Of a stretch of DNA of 40,199 nucleotides, positions 1,165-4,517 are shown in pieces; position 1 is the stretch's first letter; each line of letters starts with the position of its first letter. The notes below the pieces were generated by a model that did not search any database, was not told where the DNA came from, and worked only from the letters and a program-made list of their open reading frames with translations. Source of the DNA: a virus (taxonomy: Duplodnaviria; Heunggongvirae; Uroviricota; Caudoviricetes); the IMG/VR virus record IMGVR_UViG_2681813201_000021, one strand, 5' to 3'. A program made the position numbers and the translations under genes.

Positions 1165-1391
1165 TTTCTTTCCTCTGTTATGCCATCACCCGCGCTCACC
1201 TGGACAGTATGCAGCGGAGACTGAAGAGCCGCAATGCAGGCTTGTCGTGTTGTGAGGTAAGGAGATTTATTCTTAGTGGGATCTTTGCGTGTTGCCTGAA
1301 GACGCCCTGTGCGTATCCAGTTAATGGCAGTCGGTCTGGATATCTTGAGAAAATGACAGGCCTCATCGAGTGTGAGGCTGTATGGCTCCAT
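1041..1391 (-). CDS. xis: Excisionase / AlpA-like DNA-binding protein
   Basis: Internal Met start [31 protein letters not shown] is a typical AlpA/Xis HTH; start overlaps upstream stop (TAATG); 3' end overlaps int start. Confidence 0.6.
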
Positions 1392-1735
1392 TATTTCACC
1401 TCTTGCTGTGACATTGTTGAGAAATGGATACCAGCTCGTTGCTGCCAGACGATCCAACCGAGAGTCATATCCCATGCCATGTATTCGTTATCGCCGTTTT
1501 TTGCTCTCCGACGATCGACTGTTTTACCGAAACGCTTTTCCATAAATAATTCATAGGCTGCGCGTTCATCTGGCTCAACTTCCAGAGATGCCAGTGCAAT
1601 CCGTGCCAGTTCTAAATCATTTTCAAGCTCAGCGCGAATCTCAGCGAATGCACTCTGTGTTAAGGCGAACTCAATGCTCTGCACTTTATTCCGTGCGCGC
1701 TCAAGCAGTGCATGGTAGTTAATTTCGGTTGTCAT
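1391..1735 (-). CDS. Hypothetical phage protein
   Basis: 114 aa ORF, RBS GAGG before ATG at 1735; start overlaps stop of upstream gene (ATGA); no recognisable motif. Confidence 0.5.
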   Translation of the reverse strand: MTTEINYHALLERARNKVQSIEFALTQSAFAEIRAELENDLELARIALASLEVEPDERAAYELFMEKRFGKTVDRRRAKNGDNEYMAWDMTLGWIVWQQRAGIHFSTMSQQEVK

Positions 1736-2610
1736 ACCCCTACCTCTTCGAATTCCAATTCCAATTGATCACCCCAGATTTCACATGACTCTGAACACGA
1801 ACCGGTATCGAATCGCCTGGCCTGTACCATCGCCTGATACAAATTTCTGTAGTCGCTGTTGGCAGACATTCTGGCAATTCCGTCAAGCGTCAGGTGACCA
1901 CGGTACATAATGTCTTTACCTGTTCTGCGATGACCATCCCTGACGTGTTTGCCTGTAACCAGTTCATTAAAAACTCGCATCAGACCTGGTTCGTCTTTAC
2001 ATGCAAGCCCCAGCTTTTGCGTTGACTTTTTGATGCAGAAAACACAGTTCCCGAGATGCTCCGGGATTTGCAAATCAAAAGGTTGTTTTCGCCACCACCG
2101 GATAACATCCGACTTATCAAAATCTGACAGCTCGGCAAGATACCGGACGCCCGATTTCGGTTTCAGCCTACGGGGTTCGTCTGCACGAATACCCAGCCAT
2201 GTGATGTAATTACCTCGCCCGAAATGGTTATCGCAGTATTTCGTGAAAGGGATGAGTTTTAGCCTGTCAGTACAGAACGCGCCACCGATGTATGGCGTGC
2301 CGTACTTTTTAACCATGTCCATAAACGGTTTAAGCACCGGCATTCGTGTCTGAATATCCTTTGGCTCCCATTCTGTATAACCATTTGGCTGCCCAAGCTC
2401 AGGATTTATATCGACCTGTAACACAGTTAGTGGTATGTCCCAGAACTTTACAACCTCCCGGATAAAGCGGTATGTCAGCGGATGTTCGCAACCGGTATCC
2501 ATAAAGATGTAGCAGACGTTATTGCCAGCCTTTCTTTGTTCTTCCATCAGGTGAACAAGATATGCGGATGTTCTCCCGCCAGAAAAACTAACTACATGAG
2601 TTATGCACAT
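1732..2610 (-). CDS. PAPS-reductase-like PP-loop protein (phosphoadenosine phosphosulfate reductase family)
   Basis: SFSGGRTS PP-loop motif near N-terminus, CxxC near C-terminus; start chosen at ATG 2610 because the longer ORF-track start at 2727 gives a Gly/Pro/Arg-rich extension overlapping the upstream gene. Confidence 0.75.
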   Translation of the reverse strand: MCITHVVSFSGGRTSAYLVHLMEEQRKAGNNVCYIFMDTGCEHPLTYRFIREVVKFWDIPLTVLQVDINPELGQPNGYTEWEPKDIQTRMPVLKPFMDMVKKYGTPYIGGAFCTDRLKLIPFTKYCDNHFGRGNYITWLGIRADEPRRLKPKSGVRYLAELSDFDKSDVIRWWRKQPFDLQIPEHLGNCVFCIKKSTQKLGLACKDEPGLMRVFNELVTGKHVRDGHRRTGKDIMYRGHLTLDGIARMSANSDYRNLYQAMVQARRFDTGSCSESCEIWGDQLELEFEEVGV

Positions 2611-3137
2611 TTGCGTAATTCCGATAACTCGTTGAAGCGTTCCATAAACATCCCGTAGGCATGGCCCGGTGCCAGTGGAATAACTTTGAACATCTCTGTT
2701 GCCGGGATACCTTCCAGTACAGGCCATAAAGAGCCATCATCAAGCCCGAGATCACGGCGTTCGGTTGCCAGCATAATGAGATCGGCATATTTCACTGGCG
2801 TGCTCATAACAGGAGGTAACCCGTATTTCTCACGGATTACTGCATCTATTTTTTCTTCCATTCGTTTATAGTCAGGAAGAAAGCGTTTCAGTGGTGCGGG
2901 GATGTCCTGGCAATACGCTTCTGTTGCATCATGCATTAACGCTTCAAAAGCAAATTCCTGCGGCACCAGCTGGCTGCAAAGCACCGCATGTTGGGCGACA
3001 CTGTAGAAGTGAGAAAGATGACCGGCAAAGCGGCAGATATTTGAAAGGGAAACCGCGATATCGTTAATTACGATGTCGTCTTTATTTATCTTGTCATAAT
3101 AAAAATGCTTCCCGGAAAAAGTTTTAATAAATGACAT
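2601..3137 (-). CDS. HD-domain phosphohydrolase (YfdR-like 5'-deoxynucleotidase family)
   Basis: H...HD metal-binding pattern (VAQHAV ... LMHDATEAY); 178 aa from internal ATG 3137 with RBS GGAGAA; length and position recall E. coli CPS-53 YfdR (from memory, not searched). Confidence 0.7.
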   Translation of the reverse strand: MSFIKTFSGKHFYYDKINKDDIVINDIAVSLSNICRFAGHLSHFYSVAQHAVLCSQLVPQEFAFEALMHDATEAYCQDIPAPLKRFLPDYKRMEEKIDAVIREKYGLPPVMSTPVKYADLIMLATERRDLGLDDGSLWPVLEGIPATEMFKVIPLAPGHAYGMFMERFNELSELRKCA

Positions 3138-3264
3138 TTTGTTCTCCACGTATATGCGCTGCACCGCGCTGAATTCTGGTAAAAAGAATCCCTCACCATC
3201 CGGCGATTATTGAGTAAATTACGTTTCCATAAATGCCCCCGCAGGGGCATTTGCAGTAATGAAA

Positions 3265-4089
3265 TCAGGCGGTGAAAGTACCAATAAAGGTTTCTACTTT
3301 GCTGTCCTTGAATTTCTCAACAAGCAGATCACGAAATTCGTTAGCCATTTCTTCCTGCACCGCCTCCAGCTGAATAATGCGCAGAACCAGTACAGGACGA
3401 TCGCCAGTGATAATACTGAGGCGTAATTTAAACGGACGTTCTTTCAGACCTTCAAACGGAACGCATTTAAATTCAAATGCCACTGGCATAATGTCTTTGG
3501 TCTTCGCTTCGACAGACTCCATCAGGGAGCGTTTGCCGCTGAAGTCATTATCTTCAAAATCAGCGGTCTGGTTTGCTTCAATCGTGATTTTACGGACAGC
3601 CGCAGCCGCTTTTGTTGCCTGAATAGCGTCACCATTAGCATCAAAGCCCACAAGATAGTCGGCCCAGTCTTCAATCCATTCTGCCAGTGACTTCTGGGAG
3701 CTACGCTCGCCGTTAACAGACAACAGAGCAGAGAACGGTGCTGTCTTTTTCAGTTTGAGTGTGGCGGTGTTATCTGCGTGACCTGGTTCATCAATAGTAC
3801 CCAGGTTAAGCACACTGACGGCACGCATATTATCAGCATCGATAAAGCAGCGGGTGCCTTCATCTGCAAGATCTTTAGAATAACGGGTAAAGTCATCGAT
3901 GCTGGCAGTGGAAAGCGCACCACGGAAACGGAAGCGATTTAAATTAAATTTTTCCAGATCATGAATGCGGAAATTCTCAGGCAATGCCACAGCATCGGCA
4001 CCAATCTTACTGATAATTTCATTAACACCCTGAGCAGAAATAAGGGCATGGATTTGATTAATTGCGGTTGCGTCTAAGTTCTGAGACAT
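3265..4089 (-). CDS. Phage protein, DUF2303/YfdQ-like
   Basis: 274 aa ORF, RBS GAGGA before ATG 4089; size and position recall YfdQ of CPS-53-type prophages (recollection). Confidence 0.55.
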
Positions 4090-4154
4090 AATAAGTCCTC
4101 ACTATATAAAGATATTCAGTGATGAGATAAATAATCAGTTAATTAAAAACGATA

Positions 4155-4517
4155 TTAACGACCTGCTGCGCGGAGTTTTCCGTCAGGTTCACCGGCAAGA
4201 GTCAGTAACTGTCCCTGGTCTTCCTGCAGAATAGTCAGGCGACCACCGCGATTGACATACATCGGCGTTTCGGTGGTGTCTTCTTCGGAAATTTTCCCGC
4301 GGTTAGTCGGGCGAACATATGAGAGTTTGTGTTTGATTTTCACACGGTTCTCATCAAATGGTTCGATTTCCAGGTTGAGTGAGACCTTACCTTTGGTTTT
4401 CGTGTTCATCACACCGGAAGCGACTTCACTGAGAACTGCGCCGATTTTGGTTTCAAATACGCCGCCGTCCAGCTCCCCGATAAATGCCTGCACATCAGTA
4501 CTGCGTTCGCTAGCCAT
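4155..4517 (-). CDS. Hypothetical phage protein (YfdP-like size)
   Basis: 120 aa from ATG 4517 preceded by GAGGAG at 7-nt spacing; the longer ORF-track version (to 4835) has an Arg/Cys/Pro-rich N-terminus typical of non-coding GC-rich DNA. Confidence 0.55.
   Translation of the reverse strand: MASERSTDVQAFIGELDGGVFETKIGAVLSEVASGVMNTKTKGKVSLNLEIEPFDENRVKIKHKLSYVRPTNRGKISEEDTTETPMYVNRGGRLTILQEDQGQLLTLAGEPDGKLRAAGR

Follow-up and report, generated by a model that had tools for sequence, protein, structure and literature searches.

A lambda NinC homologue in the mosaic early-left operon of an SfV-like lambdoid prophage

The five-gene block considered here lies at positions 1391-4517 of a 40,199-nucleotide stretch of viral DNA (IMG/VR record IMGVR_UViG_2681813201_000021; hereafter the window), and it brings together elements of two described systems. 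The first is the yfdP-yfdQ-yfdR-yfdS-yfdT cluster of CPS-53 (KplE1), a cryptic prophage of Escherichia coli K-12, together with the corresponding orf32-28 of Shigella phage SfV. In K-12, multicopy yfdQ and yfdR combined with either yfdS or yfdT suppress over-initiation mutants and inhibit initiation at oriC in wild-type cells (PMC4776307). The second is ninC of phage lambda, which encodes a PP-loop protein (Orf290, PHROG 424) that is dispensable for plaque formation and for which no two-hybrid partners were found. DndC, SspD and BrxP, which install DNA phosphorothioates, belong to the same PP-loop superfamily, and the three-cysteine [4Fe-4S] cluster and cysteine dyad of DndC resemble the pattern of five invariant cysteines in NinC. 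The window represents a lambdoid prophage of the SfV type, integrated at thrW with proA adjoining, and we read the block as a mosaic early-left operon built of separable cassettes, not as a single enzymatic pathway. Gene identities and modular structure can be taken as nearly certain, and the best explanation taken as a whole has a probability of about 0.55.

An earlier note on this DNA, made from its letters and a list of open reading frames (ORFs), had described five co-directional genes with overlapping starts and stops between xis and the immunity region. All five genes were confirmed on the minus strand at 1391-4517, and strong family matches in each (PHROG E = 1e-24 to 1e-120; DUF2303, E = 5e-92) show that these are not chance ORFs. 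Over bases 1000-5600 the window has 99.1% identity to E. coli WEM25 and, the swapped segment described below excepted, 98.4% to SfV. The gene order is that of CPS-53 and SfV, and the YfdP, YfdQ and YfdR proteins are 98-99% identical to their counterparts there; the window differs in carrying ninC in place of yfdS (DUF551), in the first third of its yfdT gene, which is unrelated to the CPS-53 sequence, and in holding the cluster within an apparently complete prophage, with xis and int adjoining, whereas CPS-53 is cryptic. The block does adjoin xis but stops short of cI, two ORFs intervening. Overlap was likewise found at three junctions only: yfdR and the PP-loop gene share 10 nt (ATGTGCATAA), the PP-loop gene and the following gene for a 114-amino-acid (aa) protein overlap as ATGA, and the latter overlaps xis as TAATG, but yfdP and yfdQ are separated by 65 nt and yfdQ and yfdR by 127 nt. 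The hairpin inside the longer spacer may act as an attenuator or as an mRNA-processing or stability element that splits yfdPQ from yfdR-ninC-yfdT-xis. The PP-loop gene was taken to start at 2610, giving 292 aa; a 331-aa ORF reaching 2727 is an over-extension.

Over 285 of the 290 aa of lambda NinC, the PP-loop protein has 79% identity to it, with the same length, PP-loop and cysteine motifs, and both are products of accessory lambdoid genes. The two differ in position: lambda ninC lies in the early-right arm between ninB and ninD, in the nin region from which it takes its name, whereas the copy in the window belongs to the early-left arm, with yfdR and the yfdT-like gene on either side. The family is large, comprising 5,044 clusters at 90% identity in a word-indexed search (E up to 0.001) and 1,588 representatives at 50% identity in an exhaustive search. 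The PP-loop and CxxC signature noticed earlier was located at residues 8-15 (SFSGGRTS) and at C189-x-x-C192, and a second cysteine pair, C272-x3-C276, was found in addition. In an alignment of 35 homologues, extending down to 27% identity, the invariant positions comprise S10, G12 and S15 of the PP-loop, E42, T46, C113 and K118; G140, R142, D144, E145 and R148; and G187-N188-C189-x-x-C192-x-x-K195 and C272-x3-C276, so that five cysteines (C113, C189, C192, C272 and C276) are retained throughout. NinC is judged very probably catalytically active. Structure prediction, for which lambda NinC was left out of the alignment, gave a confident model whose fold class matches the [4Fe-4S] PP-loop sulphur-transfer enzymes; this match and the five cysteines are suggestive, and only suggestive, of an iron-sulphur (Fe-S) cluster and of the installation of phosphorothioate in DNA.

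The earlier note had called for the CysH, DndC and QueC-like subfamilies to be told apart, and comparison of profiles and structures assigned the protein to none of them, placing it in the lambda NinC family instead. Sequence matches in the PDB were limited to the first ~70 residues, and the Pfam model PAPS_reduct (PAPS, 3'-phosphoadenosine 5'-phosphosulphate) covered 65 of its 175 profile positions. For CysH, the NCBIfam equivalog NF002537 gave 21.2 bits where 154 are required, the C-terminal half is different, and the protein ends in GSCSESCEIW and lacks ECGLH, the C-terminal catalytic cysteine motif of CysH. Among the defence profiles scanned with PADLOC, the best match was SspD (E = 1.3e-14), confined to the N-terminal half (positions 2-125 of 277), followed by weaker matches to BrxP and to DndC (E = 5e-3 to 6e-3), whose profiles span 468-481 positions against the 292 aa of NinC. 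The protein thus fails a full-length match to DndC or SspD, and partner genes of these systems were not found among the scanned proteins; for QueC, it fails both sequence and profile membership and a close structural match. NinC is therefore a separate PP-loop branch, distinct from CysH, DndC, SspD and QueC, and the label 'PAPS reductase' is valid at the superfamily level only. A distant relative of known structure is the 270-aa PP-loop protein deposited as 'PptA' (PDB 21fy; profile E = 2.3e-5), which has the same NCxxC motif as NinC.

The mosaic structure is clearest at the slot after yfdR, which in K-12, SfV and mEp460 is occupied by yfdS (DUF551). In those three the yfdR-yfdS junction has a 10-nt overlap of the same kind as yfdR-ninC in the window, so that ninC has replaced yfdS exactly at the gene boundary. 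The second recombination joint of the swap is placed by the alignments inside yfdT: the 114-aa protein has 83% identity to K-12 YfdT over its C-terminal 81 aa and, over 69 aa, 94% to SfV orf28, and its N-terminus is unrelated to that of YfdT. A 294-aa protein found elsewhere (P0021) is 86% identical to the NinC of the window over 88% of the query and has both DUF551, the YfdS family, and PAPS_reduct in its precomputed Pfam annotation; recombination in that same yfdS/ninC slot may have produced it. The locus itself combines known families, widespread and annotated before, in a new arrangement. Of 5,426 complete E. coli genomes, 429 have the ninC allele of the window and most have the yfd genes.

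The HD-domain protein of the block is orthologous to K-12 YfdR over its whole length (Table 1) and is also named yfdR in RefSeq. The H...HD signature that had been read from its sequence corresponds to His69-Asp70, and together with Glu73 and Asp78 these residues align with the HD motif of YfbR (LMHDATEAYCQDIPAPLK against AMYHDASEVLTGDLPTPVK), by which the catalytic residues are judged intact. The match to the Pfam YfbR-like family lies just above its threshold (26.0 bits; cut-off 25.9), and among solved structures the nearest relative is Atu1052 (PDB 2gz4; E = 1e-12). YfbR and YfdR share the HD fold, and their metal and catalytic residues align; the two are nonetheless very distant (E = 0.3; NCBIfam 21 bits against a cut-off of 122), and DnaA binding is a feature of YfdR. 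Purified K-12 YfdR binds DnaA in a manner dependent on Phe46 of DnaA domain I and is a competitor of DiaA and of DnaB in this binding, and extracts with an oversupply of YfdQRST are inhibited for initiation in vitro (PMC4776307). In the same study YfdR is described as structurally homologous to YfbR, a 5'-deoxynucleotidase, and as having a much lower nucleotide affinity, and the 5'-deoxynucleotidase activity of YfdR in vitro is reported to be weak (PMC4776307 and work it cites). The minimal inhibitory set is present in the window as yfdQ, yfdR and a yfdT homologue with an altered N-terminus, yfdS being absent. From these overexpression data in K-12 we infer a role for YfdR in real phage development, in which YfdR, aided by YfdQ and the YfdT-like protein, would damp, delay or shut down DnaA-dependent initiation of the host chromosome after induction; we put this role at roughly even odds. 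A weak deoxynucleoside monophosphate (dNMP) phosphatase activity could be a second function of YfdR. An ordinary replication function, which the earlier note had set against its own proposal of a DNA-modification or counter-defence module, is thus closely approached for the HD gene, through DnaA binding and inhibition of initiation.

Three points count against a role in the control of initiation. The effect of YfdR on DnaA was seen only upon overexpression, and the authors allow that it may be an artefact; deletion of yfdQRST had no phenotype in normal growth (PMC4776307); and the company kept by yfdP and yfdQ in other phages points towards recombination or DNA-end biology rather than initiation control. 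YfdP homologues stand directly before yfdQ elsewhere too, with 59% identity in an O157 prophage and 39% in Vibrio phage 44E38.1. The pair in the O157:H7 prophage (5007-6239) comes after RecT and a lambda-type Exo, and that in 44E38.1 (4040-5328; YfdP and YfdQ homologues of 39% and 40% identity) is flanked on one side by a single-strand annealing protein (SSAP), an exonuclease and RNase T and on the other by a single-stranded DNA-binding protein (SSB); no YfdR homologue was found beside the pair in either. The yfdP-yfdQ couple is a gene pair conserved far beyond E. coli, in very different phages, and its context points to DNA replication or recombination. These contexts favour an alternative in which yfdP-yfdQ, perhaps with yfdR, would serve mainly in recombination, at DNA ends or against RecBCD, and what was seen with DnaA would be the artefact of overexpression whose possibility the authors concede (PMC4776307). 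The position of the genes in the window, which corresponds to that of exo-bet-gam in lambda, fits this alternative, as does the deposition of a YfdQ homologue as a 36-chain assembly ('YfdQ Protein', PDB 9o7m). In K-12, yfdQ is required for the multicopy inhibition of oriC initiation (PMC4776307). We consider a recombination module unlikely, though a serious contender. A predicted structure of YfdQ (AlphaFold2; mean predicted local distance difference test score 78) had no significant neighbour in structure libraries of April 2026, which included neither 9o7m nor 21fy, and a literature search traced no paper for either entry.

Clues to the role of NinC came from its associations. Twelve of the 150 best family representatives are at least 380 aa long, and six of these twelve contain a DNA adenine methylase domain, five of them Dam (PF05869), in both domain orders, and one D12 (PF02086). 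Among the 80 top-ranking NinC loci of viral contigs, 11 have a Dam-type methylase fused to, abutting or near ninC, and in phage Oslo a Dam-type gene stands directly upstream. The window also encodes a Dam-type methyltransferase (Table 1), which shares 57.5% identity with the Dam domain of a NinC-Dam fusion (P0125). The closest tested relative is p0018 of Vibrio phage 44E38.1, a fusion to Dam of a PAPS reductase-like PP-loop domain that is 55% identical to the NinC of the window over 96% of the length of the latter; the phage that encodes it also carries the yfdP-yfdQ pair. When p0018 and its neighbour p0019 were moved into a related, sensitive phage, the recombinant infected a Dnd-carrying strain of V. 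crassostreae, and it reached 10^11 plaque-forming units/ml on a retron-deleted host (Piel et al., bioRxiv 10.1101/2021.05.05.442762; Nat Microbiol 2022). In a 2026 survey, PAPS reductases also figure as putative anti-defence cargo of Aca-regulated operons (PMC13551039). The neighbour p0019, considered as an equivalent of YfdR, has no similarity to it and is a DUF6475 protein, of which no homologue was found in the window.

Because a phage given p0018 together with p0019 could infect a Dnd-carrying host, a counter-defence role for NinC is plausible. NinC would be an ATP-dependent adenylating enzyme that uses an Fe-S cluster and a cysteine dyad to transfer sulphur, acting on DNA and not on sulphate or free nucleotides; it would mark DNA or otherwise shield the phage from phosphorothioate-dependent restriction of the Dnd or Ssp type, and may cooperate with the Dam-type methylase that the prophage encodes. 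We infer the Fe-S binding, the DNA substrate and the anti-restriction effect in E. coli from the family and its relatives, and hold the anti-restriction role as tentative, its chances falling somewhat short of even. Several observations weigh against it. No DndA, DndB, DndD, DndE, SspA, SspB or SspC partner was found among the 14 ORFs of the window scanned with PADLOC, which speaks against NinC as modelled here because DndC and SspD need such partners (DndA/D/E or SspA/B/C). The only relative with a tested phenotype comes from a Vibrio phage and none from an enterobacterial one, and since that transfer used two genes, one of them a methylase fusion, the effect may not be due to the PP-loop domain alone; p0018 is fused to Dam and was assayed jointly with p0019, whereas the NinC of the window is a stand-alone protein with its Dam-type gene 6 kb away in the other arm. 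CPS-53 has a Dam-type methylase remnant (yfdM) without ninC, so methylase and ninC are not co-inherited in this phage group. Finally, lambda DNA is widely used as an unmodified standard, so that any mark made by NinC in lambda would have to be rare, conditional or host-dependent.

The same chemistry could instead be directed at RNA, in that NinC might thiolate or otherwise modify tRNA, as do TtuA, NcsA, TtcA and TilS, and thereby tune translation or evade anticodon nucleases. The recurrent, independent fusions and adjacencies are, however, to DNA adenine methylases and not to RNA enzymes, the sole phenotype of a relative is escape from DNA-directed restriction, and the C-terminal 130 residues of NinC match no tRNA-binding domain, which makes an RNA substrate improbable. 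An extension of the anti-restriction role to the whole family, lambda NinC included, would have these proteins act as stand-alone DNA modifiers that combine adenylation by ATP with sulphur transfer through Fe-S or persulfide, that are guided by or cooperate with Dam, and that leave a sparse phosphorothioate-like or thio-base mark allowing lambdoid and Vibrio phages to pass Dnd or Ssp systems. We regard this wider proposal as speculative and distinctly unlikely as it stands; were it true, it would give a function to a lambda gene that has gone unexplained for some 40 years and reveal how a single gene can bring about modification of the DNA backbone or bases.

The earlier note had treated the PP-loop and HD genes as a pair acting on nucleotide pools or host defences. 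Such a joint module, in which the PP-loop enzyme and the HD phosphohydrolase would act together on nucleotide pools or on a nucleotide-derived DNA modification, draws on the 10-nt overlap of the two genes with its probable translational coupling, on the name dNMP phosphatase that PHROG gives to the YfdR family, and on the HD hydrolases of dNMPs and deoxynucleoside triphosphates that accompany base-modification pathways in some phages. The overlap, however, belongs to the slot and not to the pair, because K-12 yfdR-yfdS has the same one. YfdR stands directly upstream in only 10 of the 80 viral NinC loci, in all of which NinC is at least 92% identical to the protein of the window, while NinB and the nin region flank NinC in 13 of the 80. 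Among sampled matches in complete E. coli genomes, ninC copies of ~94% identity or higher adjoin yfdR, and copies of ~90-92% identity, found in Shiga toxin (Stx) and O157 prophages or on plasmids (72 places), have other neighbour genes. The order in an O157:H7 prophage is RecT, Exo, a hypothetical protein, a YfdP-like protein, YfdQ, a 147-aa non-HD protein and NinC; the 147-aa protein was considered as a diverged HD protein and rejected, as it has neither similarity to YfdR nor a Pfam hit. In lambda, O276 and Oslo the gene before NinC is ninB or one for a DNA methylase. Nor do the two have the same distribution across phages: NinC occurs in 588 phage records, of which 341 are from Vibrio phages, and YfdR in 324, mostly from Bacillus, Caulobacter and Escherichia. 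NinC and YfdR are thus not a conserved pair, being adjacent only in one shallow E. coli clade, and we judge a joint module very improbable. Apart from the weak 5'-deoxynucleotidase activity that YfdR is reported to have in vitro, nothing was found to support an effect on nucleotide pools. The expectation that these genes are accessory was borne out by the dispensability of lambda ninC and by the deletion of yfdQRST; a counter-defence or DNA-modification function is plausible for the PP-loop gene, given its methyltransferase fusions and its 55%-identical anti-Dnd homologue, but not for an enzyme pair. That NinC is a true PAPS/adenosine 5'-phosphosulphate (APS) reductase (CysH), serving as an auxiliary metabolic gene that boosts sulphate assimilation in infection, can be dismissed, since the Pfam and equivalog matches fall far short (65 of 175 positions; 21 bits against 154), only ~160 of 292 residues superpose on APS reductase, the C-terminal motif is CSESCE and not ECGLH, and fusions to DNA methylases would make no sense for sulphate reduction.

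The locus is common and, as a finding, ordinary; its value lies in the NinC connection: what hundreds of prophages and Stx phages carry under the annotation 'PAPS reductase' is lambda NinC, and the only consistent genomic partner of this family, whose active site is of enzyme grade, is a DNA adenine methylase. A vague metabolic label thereby gives way to a counter-defence hypothesis that can be tested in the best-understood phage system, and 'PAPS reductase' in phage genomes should not be taken as a gene of sulphur metabolism. The features of the block and its surroundings are collected in Table 1.

Table 1. Features of the window, with positions counted from its first letter
Feature	Position	Strand	Evidence
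int, tyrosine integrase	1..1164	(-)	ORF; WEM25 annotation has tRNA-Thr then integrase
xis, 116 aa; overlaps the yfdT-like stop (TAATG) and the int start	1041..1391	(-)	PHROG 2907 excisionase, E = 1e-50; Pfam HTH_17; RefSeq gene model
yfdT-like gene, 114 aa, differing N-terminus	1391..1735	(-)	PHROG 660
ninC-like PP-loop gene, 292 aa, annotated 'PAPS reductase family'	1732..2610	(-)	PHROG 424, E = 1.9e-90
yfdR, 178 aa, HD domain	2601..3137	(-)	97.8% identity to K-12 YfdR over all 178 aa; PHROG 318, E = 4e-110
Hairpin, perfect 9-bp, AAATGCCCC-TGCG-GGGGCATTT, without U tract	3229..3250	(-)	Read off the sequence
yfdQ, 274 aa, DUF2303	3265..4089	(-)	98.9% identity to K-12 YfdQ; Pfam DUF2303, E = 5e-92
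yfdP, 120 aa	4155..4517	(-)	98.3% identity to K-12 YfdP; PHROG 204, E = 1e-49
Frameshifted ORF between yfdP and cI	about 4532-4842	(-)	No family match
98-aa ORF between yfdP and cI	5118-5414	(-)	No family match
Candidate early-left promoter, just downstream of cI	5518..5546	(-)	Sigma-70 pattern match TTGCCA-17-TAGATT
cI, LexA-type repressor	5599-6225		
Dam-type DNA N6-adenine methyltransferase, after a PerC-like gene, early-right arm	8856-9542	(+)	Pfam PF05869, E = 3e-45
PD-T4-3 GIY-YIG protein	36343-37116	(-)	PADLOC E = 2e-140
C5-cytosine methylase of an EcoRII-like restriction-modification pair	37481-38956	(+)	
EcoRII endonuclease of the same pair	38991-40199	(-)	

The candidate promoter is a pattern match only, and its position fits that of the lambdoid pL by synteny. 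Between yfdP and cI, an 81-aa ORF on the plus strand (4955-5200) overlaps the 98-aa ORF and has no family match, and the SfV annotation places putative terminators at positions equivalent to 4532-5414 of the window. Within 12000-14200 the GC content is low (0.33-0.39; about 0.55 in the flanks), and two ORFs of this stretch, 12466-13083 and 13444-14193, both on the minus strand, had no Pfam or PADLOC match and are candidate morons; they come after a DUF968 gene (11082-12077), roughly where the WEM25 prophage has a Q-type antiterminator. The right end of the window (36343-40199) carries defence cargo. Next to it, a serine invertase of the Hin/Cin type (35692-36282, plus strand) adjoins tail-fibre-assembly and tail-collar ORFs (34551-35701, minus strand), and 34551-36282 looks like an invertible tail-fibre segment for host-range switching.

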